A stretch of DNA of 64,000 bases. Origin: a virus. The notes below the pieces were generated by a model, which ran no database searches, was not told the DNA's origin, and saw only the letters and a program-made list of their open reading frames with translations. How positions within the stretch are numbered: position 1 is the first letter of the stretch; each line of letters opens with the position of its first letter. The translations under genes were made by a program, and so were the position numbers. Of this stretch, positions 3,629 through 46,815 are shown in pieces. The stretch spans positions 32,918-96,917 of IMG/VR virus record IMGVR_UViG_3300026549_000035; one strand, 5' to 3'.

Positions 3629-3698
3629 AAATTGACAAAAAGAAAAAATTTTGTTAAAATATATATAGAAATAATAAGAGAAAAAGGAGTGTTTATTT

Positions 3699-32092: not shown

Positions 32093-32172
32093 TTTTATTT
32101 ACTTACCTGCCTTTCATAAGAATATGGAAAATAAAGTAAATAAATTTGAAAATTTTGACCAGTACTTCCAAA

Positions 32173-32382
32173 TTATTTGGAAGTACTGCCAAAACCTCCC
32201 GTGCGTTTGGCGTTTGTCCATTCAAAAGTGGCATCTTCTTCAACTGTTTTATAATTCAAGAAAACACCCTAGCCTATTTTATCACCTTTTTGCAAAATTA
32301 TATCTTGAGGAAATAAATTAATTATTTGAAAATAAATATGTCCTTCATTGTCGGGATTATTATAATAATCAGAATCAATAAT
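32173..32382 (-). CDS. dut: dUTPase exon 2 (motifs 3-5)
   Basis: IIDSDYYNNPDNEGHIYFQIINLFPQDIILQKGDKIG[TAG]GVFL…RTGGFGSTSK then TAA. The TAG falls at the invariant Gln of dUTPase motif 4. The stop lies in the loop of a 13-bp perfect palindrome CAGTACTTCCAAA/TTTGGAAGTACTG. Confidence 0.8.
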
Positions 32383-33824
32383 CATTTGTTATCCTATAGG
32401 CTTTTTATCCTACAGTTCTTATATTTTTCCATCATATAAGTTCGGCGTACATTTTCATTTTTAAATAAAAAATGTTGAACACTCTTGGAGGGATTATATT
32501 TATTCACCCCCTACGCTCTACGGTGTCTCTTCGCCTTTCGCAATCGAAGAGATTACCTCGGTATTGTCCTTTTTTTTTGGAGGATTTCACCGATTTTGCT
32601 CAATTTTTAGTCGGCATTATTTGTCACTATAAAATTACTTGTTTCTAATAATAAATCTTCTATTTTTAAATCCTTTAATTGCGTATAGGGGATACGAATT
32701 AAGGGAATATGATTTTCTTTACACCATTCGTTTTTGATTAAATCATGCCTATGAGTATATTCATAATTAAAAATAGTTTCCTAAAAATGCTGTATTCCAT
32801 CAAATTCAATTAAATATTTATTATTTATATAAAAATCAAAAGGTAATAATGTTTTATCTTTGCAGGTTTTAAATTTTTTTTCAATTTCAAAAGGAATATT
32901 ATTAGAAAATAATAATTGTTTAATTTTTTCATTTCCTTTTGAAATATTACTATGTTGTCCACAGCTAAGAGTTAATCCTTGTCGTAGACTAATTCCTAAA
33001 ACGTCTCTTTCAATGCCGCAGTTACATTTACAGCGCCAATAGATAGCTCCTCCGGCACTTCTTTTATTTGTTTTATATAAAACGTGCCACATTCCAAAAG
33101 TCTGTCCAGAGATATCTTTTTCGTTGGTTTTAGAAGATATTATTTCTTTTCCTGATAAATGATTATCATACCAAATTTTAGTAATCATTCCTCTAGAAAC
33201 ATTAAGTTCTCTAGCTAATTGATTAGATGTTTTTGTATTATAAGAATCTATAATATACTATTTATCTTCTTTAGATAGTTTATATTCTTTATTTTCATAA
33301 ACATCATAATTATATTTTTTAGCATAATTTAAAATCGCTGTTGAACTACAATTGTATTTTTTGCCCATTGCCTATGCATTTTTTAATATTTTATAATCTT
33401 TAATAAAATCCTCTAATTTTATATTATCTAATTTGTTATTATGGTTTTTAAGAATATAACCATGTGATTTTAAATAATTTGCAACGGCTGTTGGGCTACA
33501 ATTATATTTTTCACCTACTTTTTGACAACTTAATAATTCTTCATAATCTTTAATTACCTGTTCAATTGGAATATTTATAATTTTTATTTTTTTATTTTTA
33601 CTATTATCATAGTTAATTTTTTTAGCATGATTAAGAATTGAAGTTTTACTACAATTATACAATTCTGCCATTTTTCTAGAACTTTTTAATTTTTGATAAT
33701 TTTTAATAAATTCTTCATTAGTGCCAAAATCCATATATTCACATCCTTTCACTTATATATGAAAGAAGTTAATATTTTATTAGAAGATTTTTGACCAAAC
33801 TTTTTATAGTTAGGAAAAAAGTCT
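32383..33824 (-). mobile_element. self-splicing intron (group I-like, type 'A/B') in dut carrying a homing endonuclease gene
   Basis: It separates dut exon 1 (…SVRSSCPLKNWLILANGVG) from exon 2 (IIDSDY…), which together restore dUTPase motif 3. The 5' exon ends in T and the intron ends …GGATAACAAATG. The 3' end holds a roughly 190-nt conserved structured core (32383-32575), paralogous to the core at 35689-35885. Confidence 0.7.
32607..33752 (-). CDS. intron-encoded homing endonuclease: triple-HTH + zinc finger + Vsr-like PD-(D/E)xK nuclease domain, about 380 aa
   Basis: Track ORFs 33372..33752 and 32781..33188 plus read-through of TAGs give three NCS(K/P/S)T(S/A)(I/V)xN(H/Y)(A/L)KK HTH repeats. 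A CKCNCG zinc finger follows. The C-terminus …LIEFDGIQHF[Q]…D…K…C…IPLIRIPY is typical of DUF559/Vsr-fold homing endonucleases. Confidence 0.65.
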
Positions 33825-34175
33825 ACCGACTCCATTTGCGAGAATGAGCCAATTTTTTAAAGGACAAGAACTTCGAACAGATAATTGCAAATATTGATTT
33901 TTTGGAATATAAGCTTTAACTCCAGTAGGAACTAGAGTCGGCTTAAAATTATATTTTTTAGTTATTTCTTTTACTTCATCTAAGTCAAATAAATATCTAT
34001 CTCTAATTAAACCATATTTAGATAAATTCTAGACATTTTTAAAATAACTTGGAACAATTGTATCTTCGGCAACAACAAAATCATATCCTGCGCTATCTGC
34101 AGTTGCTCTTTTGGGTAATAAAGAACTATCAGGATATTTTGATATTAATTCAAATTTAGGATATGCTAAACTCAT
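33825..34175 (-). CDS. dut: dUTPase exon 1 (motifs 1-2)
   Basis: MSLAYPKFELISKYPDSSLLPKRATADSAGYDFVV…PTGVKAYIPKNQYLQLSVRSSCPLKNWLILANGVG. The start ATG overlaps the upstream gene's TAA (TAATG). Confidence 0.8.
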
Positions 34176-34423
34176 TAAAAAGTCACCTCATATTTTACAT
34201 CAATAGATCTATCAGGTTCTTTTTCATTATTAAAAACCTTTTTAGCCTTTACAACCTGATATTCATCTACGATTTCACCTTTTACTTTAATATATTTAGT
34301 AGTATAACTAAAAGCAGTAAGCTCAAAAGTTGGATCTGTTAATAATTCTTGATGTAAATCTTCAACTTCTTTTACTGTTGCTACTCTATAAGTAGTAACG
34401 TCATTAATTAAATATTTTACCAT
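34175..34423 (-). CDS. hypothetical protein, 82 aa
   Basis: ORF track. It contains no TAG and ends TAA. Confidence 0.45.
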   Translation of the reverse strand: MVKYLINDVTTYRVATVKEVEDLHQELLTDPTFELTAFSYTTKYIKVKGEIVDEYQVVKAKKVFNNEKEPDRSIDVKYEVTF

Positions 34424-34691
34424 TAATATAAATCCTCATTTCTTTATTATTTGAATATTTTGTCATTAATGAATTTAAAAGGTGTGATCCAAATTCTTTT
34501 AAATATGACTCATAACCTCTTAAATCTATACCATCAATATCTTCGTGCTAGTTCATTAAATAAGTTAATTCTTCAGGAATTAAATCTACTGGTTTAGAAG
34601 ATTGTGATAAAACTTTTCCACTATCTTCTACTAAGTAAATACTTTGATCTCCATCAAATAAATTAAAATCTACTATTAAATGTTTAGACAT
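34404..34691 (-). CDS. hypothetical protein, about 95 aa
   Basis: MSKHLIVDFNLFDGDQSIYLVEDSGKV… has one TAG. Its end overlaps the next gene's start. Confidence 0.4.
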
Positions 34692-35058
34692 AAGTTACAA
34701 CTCCTTCGTCATATGGGAATAACATGAAAGCATGAGCTTCTTGACCAGTCGTTTCATTTTTTGCCCAAATTTCACAATGCTCAGAATCTTCTTCAATTTC
34801 ATCGGAATGGATTGTCCAACCCGTTTCTAATAAAATAGAAATAACAGCATTTCCAAAAGTATCAAATTCTGCCCTAGTAGGTTTTCTATGTTGAAAAACA
34901 GTATAATAATTAATTTCTCTACATAAAAGCATATAAAAGTGTCCTTCAAAATATTTCTTTTCCCATTCGTTGATACGAGCTTTTAAGTCTTCTATTTGAG
35001 ATTCATCATATGCAGGTAACTAACTAATTATACTTTGATTTATTTCATACAAAGACAT
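34684..35058 (-). CDS. hypothetical protein, about 124 aa
   Basis: Track ORF 34684..34932 extends upstream through one TAG to ATG at about 35058 (MSLYEINQSIIS…). Confidence 0.4.
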
Positions 35059-35089
35059 ATTGATATTTCCTTGTCCTTTTACTTTATTT

Positions 35090-35602
35090 TTAATGTTCTT
35101 TTTTTTCATTTTCTCTTATTTCCTTCATATTTAAAATTCTTTGATTGCGGCTTCCGCGCATAGCGAGGGTAATATCTCTTTCAGATAGTAAAAAAGGTCC
35201 TTCAATTAAATAATCTATGTTGTCAAAAACCATATCTATTTTAGGTTCTATCTTCTCAATTAATTCCTATAATTGCTCATAGGTATAGCCTGTCCAAACA
35301 TAAATTTTTATATTAGGATAAACCTTTCTTACTTCTGTGATAATCATCGCTGTTAAAAAAACATTTTCTCCACAAAGAGGTTCTCCACCCATAATACTTA
35401 AATTTCTTTGAACCCCATTGGCATGTAAAGCTTCGATAATTTCCTATAAAACTTCTGGAGTGAATTCTTTTCCGCCATTAAAATCCCAAGTCTAAGGATT
35501 CTGACAACCAGGGCAATGAATAGGACAGCCCTAGGTGAAGAAGCTAACATTAACTCCTTCACCTGCAGCAATATCATTTTTTATAATACCGGCATATCTC
35601 AT
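35090..35602 (-). CDS. nrdG: anaerobic ribonucleotide reductase activating protein (radical SAM), about 170 aa
   Basis: MRYAGIIKNDIAAGEGVNVSFFT[Q]GCPIHCPGCQNP… carries the CxxxCxxC radical-SAM motif of NrdG with 4 TAG codons. The start ATG overlaps the TGA of nrdD exon 4 (ATGA). Confidence 0.8.
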
Positions 35603-35688
35603 TCCATTACCCCCACGTGTTTAGCTCTATTATGGACTTCGTCTTGTTTTCCGAGATTAAATGCTTCGGTGTAATTACCAGTTAAATA
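35599..35688 (-). CDS. nrdD: NrdD exon 4 (C-terminal about 29 aa after the glycyl-radical Gly)
   Basis: YLTGNYTEAFNLGKQDEVHNRAKHVGVME then TGA. It joins exon 3's …EQLRRVTG to give the RVTGYL glycyl-radical motif. Confidence 0.7.
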   Translation of the reverse strand, partial: YLTGNYTEAFNLGKQDEVHNRAKHVGVME

Positions 35689-36925
35689 CAATTTTGTTAT
35701 CCTACAGGCTTTTTATCCTATAGTTCTTATAGTTTCCTATAAGTTCGGCGTACATTTTCATCTACGACTTTACGTTTAGATGTTGGACACTCTTGGAAGG
35801 ATTATATTTATTCACCTTCTACGCTCTACGGTACTTCTTTGCCTTTCGCAATCAAAGAAGTTACCTCGGTATTAGCATAAATTAAATTATATTTTCTTTT
35901 AAGATAATGATTATTATGATTTTTATATAAATAATTTCGTAATAAAACTATATCTTTTTGACTAGACCATCTAATTCTTTTTATAGAACCTTCTTTAGTA
36001 ATATTATTTTTATTTAAAGAAGGTAAAGCTTTAAAAAGATTTTTCTAAACCCAAGATATAATATTTTCATTTCCACAAAAACTTATTTCACAACATTTTT
36101 GACCAGAAGATCGAATATATGTTGTAAAACCTCCATCTCCATCAAAAAGACCTCTTAAAAAAGATGAATTGTATTTAGAATTAAAAATTGGAACTTGCAC
36201 AGAAAAAGTTTTCTTTTGAGTAATTCCCATTTTTTCTAAATCTAAAATTATTTTTTTACACCCTAAGCTAAATCGTTTATAATTTTTATTACTTGTATAT
36301 ACTTTATTAACAACTCCTAAATCTTGTTCTAATAAGTGTAAGATATCTTCATCTTCTTGTTTTAACGTTAATTCTAACTAAAACTTGCTTTTTTCTGGCT
36401 AATTAGTAATTGAACCATCACTAATAATCCATCCGAGCCAATAAGCTTTTTCTGGAGAGTCAATATTTTCAAAATAATTTTCATTTAAATCAGGGTTTTT
36501 TCTTTTTGAAGAAGAAATATTTTCACAATCTTTCACAATTTTTTTTATTCTTTCATAACTAATACTATATTCTTTCTACAATTTTATTAAAGGCTCATAA
36601 TTCATATAACGTTTTTTAATTTCTTCTTCCTATTCTTTTGTTAAAACATTTTTAATTTTAGCACCTATTCTTCTAGGGAGATTATTTATTCTCGCGATTC
36701 GACTAATTGTTGATGTGCTAATATTAAACTATTTTGCTATATCTTGAGTTGATATTTCTGGATGATTTAAATATAAATCAATAATTTTTTTGTCTCTATC
36801 CGTCATAATATAAAAAACTCCTTTACTGGTTTTTCTATTAAGACTTGAAAATTTAATCAGTAGCTTTCACCGATTTTGCCCAATAATATTTTAAAAAATT
36901 TCTTTTTTAAACGGCTATTTAATTA
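35689..36925 (-). mobile_element. self-splicing intron (type 'A/B') in nrdD at the glycyl-radical motif, carrying a LAGLIDADG homing endonuclease gene
   Basis: The 5' exon ends …ACAGGT and the intron ends …GGATAACAAAATTG. The roughly 190-nt 3' core (35689-35885) is about 85% identical to 32383-32575, with compensatory base changes in two stems. Confidence 0.7.
35808..36806 (-). CDS. LAGLIDADG homing endonuclease with N-terminal HTH, about 332 aa
   Basis: …AYWLGWIISDGSIT… and …LRGLFDGDGGF… are the two LAGLIDADG motifs, with an N-terminal sigma-70 region-4-like HTH. Roughly 7 TAG codons are present, and the C-terminal about 25 codons overlap the conserved intron core. Confidence 0.75.
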
Positions 36926-37453
36926 ACCTGTTACTCTACGAAGTTGTTCTATATGAGTTCCACCGCAGCGAGGACAAGTATCATTAATTTCACCTTCCCA
37001 ATCGCAATCTAAACATTTATCAGAAGGAACATTTATTGCAAAATAAGGAATATCTTTGTCCATAGCATAGTTAACTATTTGTTCTAAGGCTTTTGTATTA
37101 TGAACGGCAGACGCATCTAATTCTACATAAGTGATACAACCTGCAGAAGAGTATGGAGTTAATTGACTTTCAATGTCAATCTTATCAAATGGGCTAATAG
37201 AATACCAAACTGGAACATGGATACTATTAGTAAAGAACTCTTTATCAGAAACATTTTTAATAATTCCATATTTTTCTCTAAATTTTTTCAATGCTGTATA
37301 ACATAGATTTTCTGCTGGGGTATAATAAACTCCGAAGTTAAGAGAATATTGCTCTTTGAATTCAGCGCAACGCTTTTTAAATAACTCTTCAATTCTTTTA
37401 GCAACTTCCATACCTTTTTTTGTGGTATGATCGCAACCAACTAAGATCTAAAG
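36926..37453 (-). CDS. nrdD: NrdD exon 3
   Basis: …(ILV)GCDHTTKKGMEVAKRIEEL…CLDCDWEGEINDTCPRCGGTHIEQLRRVTG. This is the C-terminal Zn-ribbon of class III ribonucleotide reductase. The 5' boundary is approximate. Confidence 0.65.
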
Positions 37454-39023: not shown

Positions 39024-39830
39024 ATGTTTACCTAATGTTGCCATTAGCACTGACTATATCTTCTATCTTTTTATTAAGATAGCCTTCCGCTTCGAATATG
39101 TGCCTATCTCATATTCTACTCCCTTACATTCATCAGGGATAGTCGATACAGGTTTTTAATCTTTATCATATTTCCAAATATATCCATAAGCTGTTTTTTG
39201 TTTATTATTTAAACAATAATTAATTCCAACATTTTTAGATTCATTTCCTAAAAATCTAGCTGCTTCTCTTGCTGTTTGGAATCTTTTTAATAATTGTCCA
39301 TTTTTATTATACATTAAAACATCAGCAACATATTTAGAATTTTTATTACCTTTTCCTTTTTCTGAAATAATTTCTTTAATATAATCAGAATGTTTATGAT
39401 ATTCAATACCGCCTAGATCAGCATTATATCCATTTGGTAGTAAAGAATTATACTTTTGAATATATTCACGTTCTATTTTTGATATTTCATTATCTTTTAT
39501 ATTTGTTAAAAGTATTTCAAAAGAAAAATTTTCAATTCCATTTGCCTATATTGCTTTTCCTATAAATGATTTAGAACTTGGTTTTTTATGTTCTGCGAAT
39601 CGTTCATATGGATTTCTATTTGTAATACCTATATAATTTTTATTATTTAATAAATTTGTAATTTTATATAAACTATACATTTTATCACCTTCTCTTTTTA
39701 AGATGATAAAGATTAAACTTCCCACGGTCTCATCCGCATGGGACCTAACCGTTAGCGCAGTCACATTATTTGCGGCCGCACACCCTCAGGCGAGGTTCAA
39801 AAGGTTTTAGATGAGCTATAGTTTCCACTT
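39024..39830 (-). mobile_element. group I intron (IA2-like 'GCTAACGG' family) in nrdD carrying a GIY-YIG homing endonuclease gene
   Basis: The 5' exon ends …ATGGGT. The intron carries …GCGCTAACGGTTAGGTCCCATGCGGATGAGACCGTGGGAAG… (compare T4 td …AACGGGGAACC…AATCCCGTG…). After the ORF come CCTGTATCGACTATCCC…ATAGTCAGTGC then a hairpin, ending G. Confidence 0.65.
39157..39680 (-). CDS. GIY-YIG homing endonuclease, about 174 aa
   Basis: MYSLYKITNLLNNKNYIGITNRNPYERFAEHKK…NGYNADLGG…KTAYGYIWKYDKD. The start is anchored by track ORF 39546..39764. The 3' end coordinate is approximate. Confidence 0.75.
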
Positions 39831-45665: not shown

Positions 45666-46815
45666 TGGACTATATCTTTTACAATAAACTACTGAGAATA
45701 ATTACTTCATTTATTGTAAGAGTGCGCTACGGAATAGTGCTTATCTCTATTCCTCTATATTAGTCTCTACACTCCAATAAAAACCTTTATATAATGTTTT
45801 ATTTTTAATGGCTTTATCTAAACCTGTATGACCTTTCATATTTAAAAAATCTAATACTGCTGTTTTAGCATTAAAAATTTTTATTAAATTATAATCTTTA
45901 TCATACATATAAACTTTTTTACCATTAATAGCATTATTTTTACTTTTTCCATACATTCCATTTTTTACTCCTGAAGTTTTTCCTTTACTATGTTCAGACA
46001 TTAATTTTTTAGATTCTTCAGTATGATGTTTTCCATACATTCCATTTTTTGCTCCTTTAGTAGCCTCTGACATAGTTTTACGATATTCTTCAGTTTTCAT
46101 ATAAGATGTATCTCTATTTTTACGAATTTTTTCTTTAGTCTCTTCTGTCAAATGAATACCATATCTAGGATTATTTTTTCCTTTATATTTATTACTCATT
46201 TTTTGTGAATATTTTTCTTTTTCTTCTTTACTCCATCCAGCTCTTGTATTACCACCATTTCCGCCTTCGTGAATATTATAAAAATTTTCATCTTGAACTG
46301 CGTTAAAAGCAGAAATAAATTCTCTTTCTTTATTAAAATTTTCTTCTTCATTAGATGAAATAAAAAGAATTTCTTTTTTAAAATATTCTATGCCTATTTT
46401 TTTTATATCTTCTTTTAACTTAGTTCCACTACCTAAGTATTTATCATCTAATTCTCCGTAGTGTTTTCCGATGTATTTTTTACCAGTTAAAAGATTTGTT
46501 GTTAAATAAATATAATGTTGTTTCATATTATCACCCTTTCATTATTATATGATTAAAGTGATATTGACTTTGACAGACATTGACCAAGATTTTTATATAG
46601 TTTTTATTAAAGCACGGTATTACGTGTCTAGCCTTTTCAGGACCACTCGCTCTCTTAGTCAGCTGATTCGCATATTATAAAATATATATAATATCTTATT
46701 TTGCTGATACCGTTAGCTTGTGCTTTACCAATTTTTGACAGGAATTTTTGGTAAGCCACAAACACCTCTTAGCAGAGTTCACACTCTTTTTTTACAACTC
46801 GGCAATATCAATATT
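45666..46815 (-). mobile_element. group I intron (diverged member of the IA2-like family) in dnaE at the PDIDIDF motif, carrying a GIY-YIG homing endonuclease gene
   Basis: Exon 1 …ERIELGSL and exon 2 DIDIDIC… rebuild the conserved DnaE motif. The 5' part carries …GCTAACGGTATCAGC…ATACCGTGCTTTAAT…. The 3' part carries …ATATAGTCCAATAATAAAAGG. The repeated GAATTTTTGGTAA motif also occurs at 46725-46760. Confidence 0.55.
45747..46526 (-). CDS. GIY-YIG homing endonuclease with NUMOD3-like repeats, 259 aa, TAG-free
   Basis: ORF track: MKQHYIYLTTNLLTGKKYIGKHYG…NIHEGGNGG… plus repeated NxxYGxHxTEEtK modules. Confidence 0.85.
   Translation of the reverse strand: MKQHYIYLTTNLLTGKKYIGKHYGELDDKYLGSGTKLKEDIKKIGIEYFKKEILFISSNEEENFNKEREFISAFNAVQDENFYNIHEGGNGGNTRAGWSKEEKEKYSQKMSNKYKGKNNPRYGIHLTEETKEKIRKNRDTSYMKTEEYRKTMSEATKGAKNGMYGKHHTEESKKLMSEHSKGKTSGVKNGMYGKSKNNAINGKKVYMYDKDYNLIKIFNAKTAVLDFLNMKGHTGLDKAIKNKTLYKGFYWSVETNIEE

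Follow-up and report, generated by a model that had tools for sequence, protein, structure and literature searches.

We analyzed a 64,000-nucleotide stretch of the IMG/VR virus record IMGVR_UViG_3300026549_000035 (positions 32,918 to 96,917 of that record; hereafter the window), in which the genes dut and nrdD are interrupted by two insertions with closely similar RNA cores, here called intron A (dut) and intron B (nrdD). Both are very probably mobile self-splicing introns of group I, subgroup IA, with IA1 as the closest match, carried by a phage that appears to read TAG as glutamine; this reading is drawn from sequence and its comparison with relatives. The genes of the region are on the minus strand, and the RNA strand of both cores is also the minus strand, as are all intron features given below. 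An initial annotation of the window had proposed that the two cores may represent a distinct small self-splicing intron class. The stretches it described are only the 3′ two-thirds of the ribozyme; once the 5′ segments are added, a complete group I fold emerges that is backed by covariation in 56 homologs. Given that every canonical group I element is then present, the two introns are further members of a widespread, already recognized phage group I lineage and not a new catalytic RNA class.

The near-identity of 32383–32575 and 35689–35885, initially put at about 85%, holds, goes well beyond chance and comes to roughly 90% here. Over 171 anchored positions the two cores are 90% identical, and the figure is 88% in D7 and 90% in D15, two repeat families without gaps. 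A MAFFT alignment of both regions with their flanks has a mean column identity of 83%, with a near-continuous conserved block from ...AAUACCGAGGUAA through ...GGAUAACAAA. Within the anchored core there are 17 differences, 15 of which fall in paired columns and 2 in unpaired ones. Nine pairs are affected; six have changed on both sides and three have moved from G.U to Watson-Crick, and all nine remain standard pairs. The three covarying stems quoted at the outset are all real, and correspond to P6a (UCUCUUCG/CGAAGAGA in A, CUUCUUUG/CAAAGAAG in B), P7.1 (GGGGG/CCUCC and GAAGG/CCUUC) and P8 (CAUUUUU/AAAAAUG and CAUCUA/UAGAUG). In addition, P3 shows a compensatory change from A-U to G-C (UUGAGC/GUUCAA in A, UUGGGC/GUCCAA in B). 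Since 15 of the 17 changes are pairing-neutral, they point to selection on the RNA fold, and the view that the cores are functional structured RNAs with true compensatory changes is borne out.

Intron A occupies 32383–33824 (1442 nt), with its 5′ splice site after U33825 and its 3′ splice site after G32383; intron B occupies 35689–36925 (1237 nt), with splice sites after U36926 and G35689. The positions of the two terminal (omega) residues, G32383 and G35689, are fixed by exon protein homology. The core 3′ ends, GGAUAACAAAUG in dut and GGAUAACAAAAUUG in nrdD, are followed at once by the exon codons for IIDSDY and YLTGNY, and the 3′ splice site thus lies at the core end, where it had been placed. 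Exon 1 of dut ends in ...LANGVG (GUCGGU at 33830–33825) and exon 2 begins at 32382 with IIDSDYYNNPDNEGH (IIDSDY), while the upstream nrdD exon ends in ...EQLRRVTG (ACAGGU at 36931–36926) and the next begins at 35688 with YLTGNYTEAFNLGKQDEV (YLTGNY). The predicted exon joints are GGAGUCGGU-AUUAUUGAU for dut (33825|32382) and ACAGGU-UAUUUAACU for nrdD (36926|35688). In nrdD the 5′ splice site is directly 3′ of the glycyl-radical Gly codon (RVTG|YL). The spliced dUTPase gives a single Pfam dUTPase match across the junction (profile positions 16–128 of 129), and the spliced NrdD C-terminus gives a single Pfam NRDD match across its junction (385–562 of 562), plus Gly_radical. These continuous matches uphold the assignment of both stretches to the 3′ parts of dut and nrdD introns, and splicing would give intact dUTPase (GVG|IIDSDY) and NrdD (RVTG|YL) frames. 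Translation continuing past the 5′ splice site meets an early in-frame stop, an immediate UAA in intron B and one four codons in for intron A, which is typical of phage group I introns (PMC2504315).

In intron A, the 5′ ribozyme segment (32621–32576) directly adjoins the core. The internal guide, read from the sequence at 32610–32621, supplies both pairings expected at the splice sites. Its GCCGAC (32615–32610) can form a perfect 6-bp P1 with the exon-1 end GUCGGU, placing the splice-site U.G at U33825.G32615, and its AAUAAU (32621–32616) can form a 6-bp P10 with the first exon-2 bases, AUUAUU (32382–32377). The P3–P6 domain (32519–32603) was assigned from the sequence, homolog covariation and a minimum free energy (MFE) fold. 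It begins with the P3 5′ strand UUGAGC (32603–32598), J3/4 AAAA, P4 UCGGU (32593–32589) and J4/5 GAAA, and continues through a short P5 (UCC...GGA), J5/4 CAAU and P4′ ACCGA (32562–32558) to a P6 (GG/CC) that encloses P6a (32552–32526, with a GAAA-containing loop) and to J6/7 GUA (32521–32519). The catalytic 3′ half (32383–32518), assigned on the same three grounds, opens with the P7 5′ strand G(A)GCGUA (32518–32512), in which the bulged A lies beside a G-C pair. This is followed by P7.1 (GGGGG/CCCUC, 32511–32488) with its 14-nt loop UGAAUAAAUAUAAU, P3′ GUUCAA (32480–32475) between the two P7 strands, P8 (32474–32456), J8/7 AAAAUG, P7′ UACGCC (32449–32444), P9 (32440–32418), P9.x (32415–32394) and a tail, GAUAACAAAUG, that ends in G32383. 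Of these helices, P4, P5, P6/P6a, P7.1, P9 and P9.x reappear in the MFE fold computed for the contiguous A core (z = −3.5) by a method unable to predict pseudoknots.

Intron B has the same elements in two separate parts, since an open reading frame (ORF) in the P5 loop keeps its 5′ elements apart from the core. The 5′ part (36850–36925) was read from the sequence. Its guide GCCGU (36915–36911) would form P1, and the P10 strand UUAAAUA (36922–36916), which can make 7 bp with the exon bases UAUUUAA (35688–35682), is directly 5′ of the guide, a layout identical to that in A. A P2 hairpin (UAAAAAA-GAAA-UUUUUUA) is present, followed by P3 UUGGGC (36883–36878), J3/4 AAAA, P4 UCGGU (36873–36869), J4/5 GAAA and the P5 5′ strand GCUACUGAUUAAAUU, which runs down to 36850. 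The 3′ part (35689–35888), assigned from the sequence, the MAFFT alignment and covariation, begins with the P5 3′ strand AAUUUAAUU (35888–35880), and proceeds through J5/4, P4′ ACCGA (35870–35866), P6/P6a (35865–35830), J6/7 GUA, P7 GAGCGUA (35826–35820), P7.1 (35819–35796), P3′ GUCCAA (35788–35783), P8 (35782–35759), J8/7, P7′ UACGCC (35752–35747), P9 (35743–35726) and P9.x (35723–35702) to the terminal G35689. P7 is identical in A and B (G(A)GCGUA/UACGCC) and is the candidate guanosine-binding site.

From these elements a conventional two-step reaction can be proposed. On the minus-strand transcript, the guide is complementary to the final exon bases, which gives P1 and its U.G at the 5′ splice site, and the adjacent guide bases match the opening bases of the following exon, which gives P10. 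The core, as its covariation shows, folds into the P4–P6 domain and the P3–P8/P7 pseudoknot. Exogenous guanosine, held at the P7 G-C pair beside the bulged A, may then attack the 5′ splice site; in the second step the terminal G (32383 or 35689) would take the same site and the exons would be ligated. At the sequence level, such a ligation would restore the GVG|IIDSDY and RVTG|YL motifs.

Further homologs exist in large numbers. In a blastn search the core was found at 68–78% identity in 56 GenBank phage records, from phages of Staphylococcus, Clostridium, Clostridioides, Enterocloster and Bacillus, one cyanophage and several crAss-like phages. The J6/7-P7-P7.1 pattern was found in at least 120 IMG/VR contigs and in 67 species-representative bacterial genomes, mostly Bacillota. 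When 10 kb of the window were compared with GenBank phages by megablast, no close relative of the phage itself was found, only intron cores. The nearest core to A is B (90%) and the nearest to B is L014, a core from another locus (91%), against a family mean of 74%; probably one of the two gave rise to the other, or a common donor pool supplied both. Elsewhere the core is located between the halves of split genes: TerL in Staphylococcus phage SA2, a RecD-like helicase in Bacillus phage PJN02, where the split gene adjoins an annotated 'mobile intron protein', and a helicase in the crAss-like phage cr118_1. The SA2 TerL homolog has its own P1 (GACGGU|/GCCGUC) and P10 (AGAAA/UUUCU). In SA2 (L001, MH356730; 2490–3636), the compact TerL intron ends at about 2705 with P10 support, and the second annotated TerL coding sequence starts only at 3636, past another small ORF; this late start suggests a second intron or a mis-annotated exon.

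To quantify covariation, helix strands were excised at set distances from conserved single-stranded anchors, with no use of complementarity. Anchor extraction left out 34 of 127 cores, which have length variants. The resulting set holds 87 distinct cores, and in 57 of these the 5′ strand of P3/P4 could be placed. Among these homologs, standard pairs account for 98% of P3, 99.6% of P4, 100% of P6, 96–97% of P6a, 100% of P7 (G-C/A-U 60:27, with zero mismatch), 99.5% of the 5-bp P7.1, 93% of P8, 83% of P9 and 93% of P9.x. With shuffled partners, pairing is 59–97% overall, being 60–78% for the variable helices and 94% and 97% for the near-invariant P4 and P7. Five of the six P3 pairs have changed on both sides among homologs. 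P4 occurs as UCGGU/ACCGA, ACGGU/ACCGU, UCGGA/UCCGA and UCGGG/CCCGA, and in cr118_1 the first P7 pair is switched to C-G on both sides. When 56 distinct homologs were scored with the pseudoknot included, 95.7% of cells pair, versus 74.3% after shuffling (0 of 500 shuffles as high); 35 of the 46 pairs show changes on both sides, with a covariation score of 0.60 versus 0.19. In this count P9.x is represented only by its three inner pairs, due to a spurious MAFFT gap column, while the per-helix percentages cover it in full. Kinship among the sequences inflates the shuffle statistics; this caveat is answered by the slid-partner controls, in which shifting partners by 1–3 columns brings pairing down to 32–42%.

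The initial annotation had also stressed that the two cores lack a signature found in the other introns of the window. The signature GCTAACGG is truly absent from both, but the difference amounts to a P4 sequence variant only. In the other introns, GCUAACGGGG ... AAUCCCGUGG constitutes P3-J3/4-P4 ... J5/4-P4′, and the equivalent in A and B, at the same place, is GCAAAAUCGGUGAAA ... AAUACCGAGG. On alignment, then, the missing signature is a P4 variant between two group I lineages and not the mark of a different class. The crAss-like relative cr118_1 (L128) has ACGGG/CCCGU as its P4.

The motif GCUAACGG is found in the window on the minus strand at 39749, 46710, 56090 and 58519, which are also the four GCTAACGG sites. 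Three of them (39749, 56090, 58519) align as ...GCUAACGG(GG)...CCGUGG..., while the region at 46710 did not align. We take GCUAACGG(GG)...CCGUGG to be P3-J3/4-P4 ... J5/4-P4′, as in T4 td, and the flanks at the three aligned sites look like td-like (IA2-like) group I introns. The introns of T4 td and nrdD (sunY), the Twort IA2 introns and the td-like introns of the window share with A and B the group I mechanism and hosts in nucleotide metabolism, including nrdD, and the td-like introns have P3-J3/4-P4 and J5/4-P4′ at equivalent places. The T4 td 3′ end, presumably ...AACAUAAUG, is similar to those of A and B. On the other hand, P7.1 and P7.2 are distinct hairpins in IA2 introns, whose P4 is CGGGG/CCCGU versus UCGGU/ACCGA in A and B, and there is no detectable nucleotide similarity between IA2 or td-like introns and the family of A and B.

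A and B instead have a single extended hairpin between P7 and P3′, which resembles the IA1 architecture; the Michel-Westhof scheme recognizes subgroup IA1 by P7.1/P7.1a at this place. The conserved 'loop' UGAA...AAUAUAAU proves to be internal in phiCP39-O and Bacillus phage PJN02, where it bears a further hairpin, P7.1a. P7.1a is present in the relatives L126 and L127, but in the window copies, as in most of the family, only two nucleotides (UA) are left of it. Given the P7.1/P7.1a arrangement in these relatives, we call the family IA1-like, a probable assignment that derives from architecture. Blastn links the intron of Staphylococcus phage ROSA directly to the window core (H8/H10; L125), and the two share the P4′-P6a-P7-P7.1-P3′-P8-P7′-P9-P9.x order and the GAUAACAAAUG end. 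The ROSA intron has been listed as a BLASTN relative of the group I intron in a B. cereus prophage terminase gene (Tourasse & Kolsto 2008, PMC2504315), and the terminase and TMP introns of B. cereus-group prophages have been classed as IA1 or IA2, with a homing endonuclease gene (HEG) within P1 also reported (PMC2504315). Like A and B, these Bacillota phage introns (ROSA, B. cereus-group prophages) interrupt phage genes that are conserved, house a HEG in one of their peripheral loops and soon run into an in-frame stop. A and B are unlike them in their dut and nrdD hosts, in TAG being read as Gln, in having two HEG types in different loops, and in sharing only about 68–78% nucleotide identity with them.

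Several points weigh against the group I reading. Rfam, run on the window at the gathering threshold, at E ≤ 1 and at E ≤ 10, matched no intron family on either copy, a negative outcome for the Rfam comparison suggested at the outset; its sole window matches were sub-threshold chance ones to miRNA families on a hairpin at 32148–32199. When RF00028 (Intron_gpI) was run against nine compact relatives, it matched only one, and below the gathering score. Because the pattern used to collect homologs prescribes J6/7, the P7.1 loop and most of P7, these elements are invariant by construction, and the alignment is a splice of segments whose strands were placed by anchors and not by an independent program. 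Finally, P1 of intron B is weak (GGU|/GCC with the U.G, three contiguous pairs, or six with one bulged A), and P5 of intron A is only 3 bp. Nevertheless, the Rfam result on A and B says little, because the td-like introns of the window were missed as well: none of the four GCUAACGG sites was detected by Rfam, even at E ≤ 1. In A and B the ORF insertions split the RF00028 model. Its one match, to the homolog L063, runs end to end over model positions 1–253 (39.9 bits against a gathering score of 50, E = 8.9e-7), and the alignment agrees on the placement of P3, P4, P6, P3′, P8 and J8/7-P7′.

If A and B belonged to some unknown class of small self-splicing intron that resembles group I only superficially, their lack of an Rfam match, the absence of the neighboring introns' GCUAACGG motif and the unusual invariant 14-nt loop would all be accounted for. 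This is extremely unlikely in view of the group I elements, which appear in canonical order with covariation and include the P3/P7 pseudoknot, the bulged-A P7, the terminal G, the P1 U.G and P10. The L063 match and the publication of relatives as group I introns (PMC2504315) argue the same way, and the supposed signature difference is a P4 variant. Group II intron and simple-repeat explanations were likewise rejected. It might also be supposed that A and B are splicing-dead group I relics, their cores kept for HEG expression or as a DNA-level target, with dut and nrdD broken. The invasion of the intron B core by the HEG ORF would suit such relics, as would the weak P1 of B and P5 of A. We consider this very unlikely, given that 15 of the 17 changes between A and B keep pairing, which implies selection on the RNA fold, that each guide matches its own, different exons for both P1 and P10, and that the exons are in frame with their catalytic motifs intact. 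That the likeness reflects coding conservation in overlapping ORF ends, and not RNA structure, has a negligible probability: the LAGLIDADG ORF does cover 25 codons of core B, but in intron A the ORF stops at 32607, before the shared core is reached, so that the core is covered by no long ORF on the RNA strand. Moreover, the substitutions are compensatory pairs with no third-codon-position pattern, and the core is kept at hundreds of loci whatever the type or position of the ORF. The protein-coding alternative raised by the initial annotation is thus not borne out, and mobile group I introns remain the reading that we adopt.

The two introns differ in the homing endonucleases they carry. The intron A ORF (32607–33734) encodes 375 aa with three in-frame TAG codons (= Gln). 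Its product has helix-turn-helix (HTH) repeats, matched by Pfam, and a C-terminal homing-nuclease-like domain; it matches PHROGs phrog_559, 9084 and 7140 (homing or intron-encoded nuclease), while a PDB sequence search gave no meaningful relative. The ORF sits in the P1 loop that separates the 5′ splice site from the internal guide, and its final codons, GCC GAC TAA, contain the guide. In another family member, L002 (MT835539, about 2440–2460), the upstream ORF likewise ends exactly on the internal guide (GCC GCU UAG); a P1-loop endonuclease ORF ending on the guide is hence a recurrent layout in the family. Upstream of the intron A ORF start at 33734, a Shine-Dalgarno-like GAAAGGA is complementary to an upstream UCUUUCA (UUCUUUCAUAUAUAAGUGAAAGGA; 33745–33775, minus strand). 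This pairing could keep the endonuclease's ribosome-binding site hidden, an arrangement found in some ORFs of T4 introns.

The intron B ORF (35808–36806) encodes a 332-aa LAGLIDADG homing endonuclease with an N-terminal HTH and has seven in-frame TAG codons. It matches PF14528 (LAGLIDADG_3) with 35.6 bits (cut-off 22.5), PF14527 with 25.1 bits (cut-off 23.2) and the PHROGs endonuclease family phrog_4645 (3.8e-50), and the protein contains LRGLFDGDGG. From its place in the P5 loop, its last 25 codons cross P5′, P4′, P6, J6/7 and P7 into the P7.1 loop. With TAG as Gln, the frame reaches core position 35811 and its stop TAA (35810–35808) lies in the P7.1 loop; under the standard code it stops about 20 codons into the core, at the in-frame UAG 35828–35826. 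The overlap of about 25 codons described initially is therefore correct with TAG as Gln, and shortens to about 20 under the standard code. The seventh in-frame UAG of this ORF is the family-invariant UAG of J6/7. The endonucleases of A and B presumably spread the introns by DNA homing, and the presence of unrelated endonucleases, each in a different loop, in such close cores is consistent with related ribozymes having been invaded independently.

In-frame TAGs occur in essentially all minus-strand genes between 31 and 38 kb, and when they are read as sense the fragmented frames become continuous. The dut TAG at 32271–32269 is at the position of the Gln in the dUTPase ...IGQG... motif, a residue that we take to be conserved. 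Because of this position and the continuity of the frames, the phage very likely reads TAG as Gln. A tRNA scan of the window found no tRNA gene and hence no suppressor tRNA. It is conceivable, albeit improbable, that UAG recoding times both endonuclease production and interference with nrdD splicing, thereby gating the introns. Under the standard code, ribosomes would halt far upstream and not enter the intron B core, whereas with UAG as Gln the endonuclease would be made and ribosomes would cross P4′, P6 and P7 into the P7.1 loop. High group I intron density along with TAG/TGA recoding has been described for the Delta and Zeta crAss-like phages (PMC7886860).

Further features lie around the two host genes. 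Two paralogous GIY-YIG-type ORFs with TAG codons are found on the minus strand at 32098–31253 and 38451–37516 (IYCHTNKINGKKYIGqT and IYKFTNKINGKIYIGqT). The former is free-standing, just downstream of dut, while the latter precedes the C-terminal exon of nrdD and is probably part of another intron in that gene. Further GIY-YIG-type copies at 44, 52, 58 and 63 kb are indicated by repeat families D2, D3, D5 and D8. An nrdG-like activase ORF with in-frame TAGs (35620–35093, minus strand; …CPIHCPGCQNP…) directly follows the last nrdD exon. Just beyond the dut stop codon, the hairpin at 32148–32199 is a perfect 13-bp one (CAGUACUUCCAAA...UUUGGAAGUACUG), probably a terminator or RNA-processing hairpin.

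Taken together, our results fix the exact dut and nrdD exon junctions for annotation and account for two apparent gene fragments. They also offer a clean example of one ribozyme core combined with two homing endonucleases that are unrelated to each other and occupy different loops (P1 in A, P5 in B). Furthermore, a common phage group I family escapes the standard Rfam model, which is useful to know when annotating intron-rich, stop-codon-recoded gut phages. Given that Rfam overlooks most copies of this putatively IA1-derived core that lacks P7.1a (1 of 11 tested copies matched, sub-threshold), the group I introns of recoded gut phages are likely to be under-annotated.

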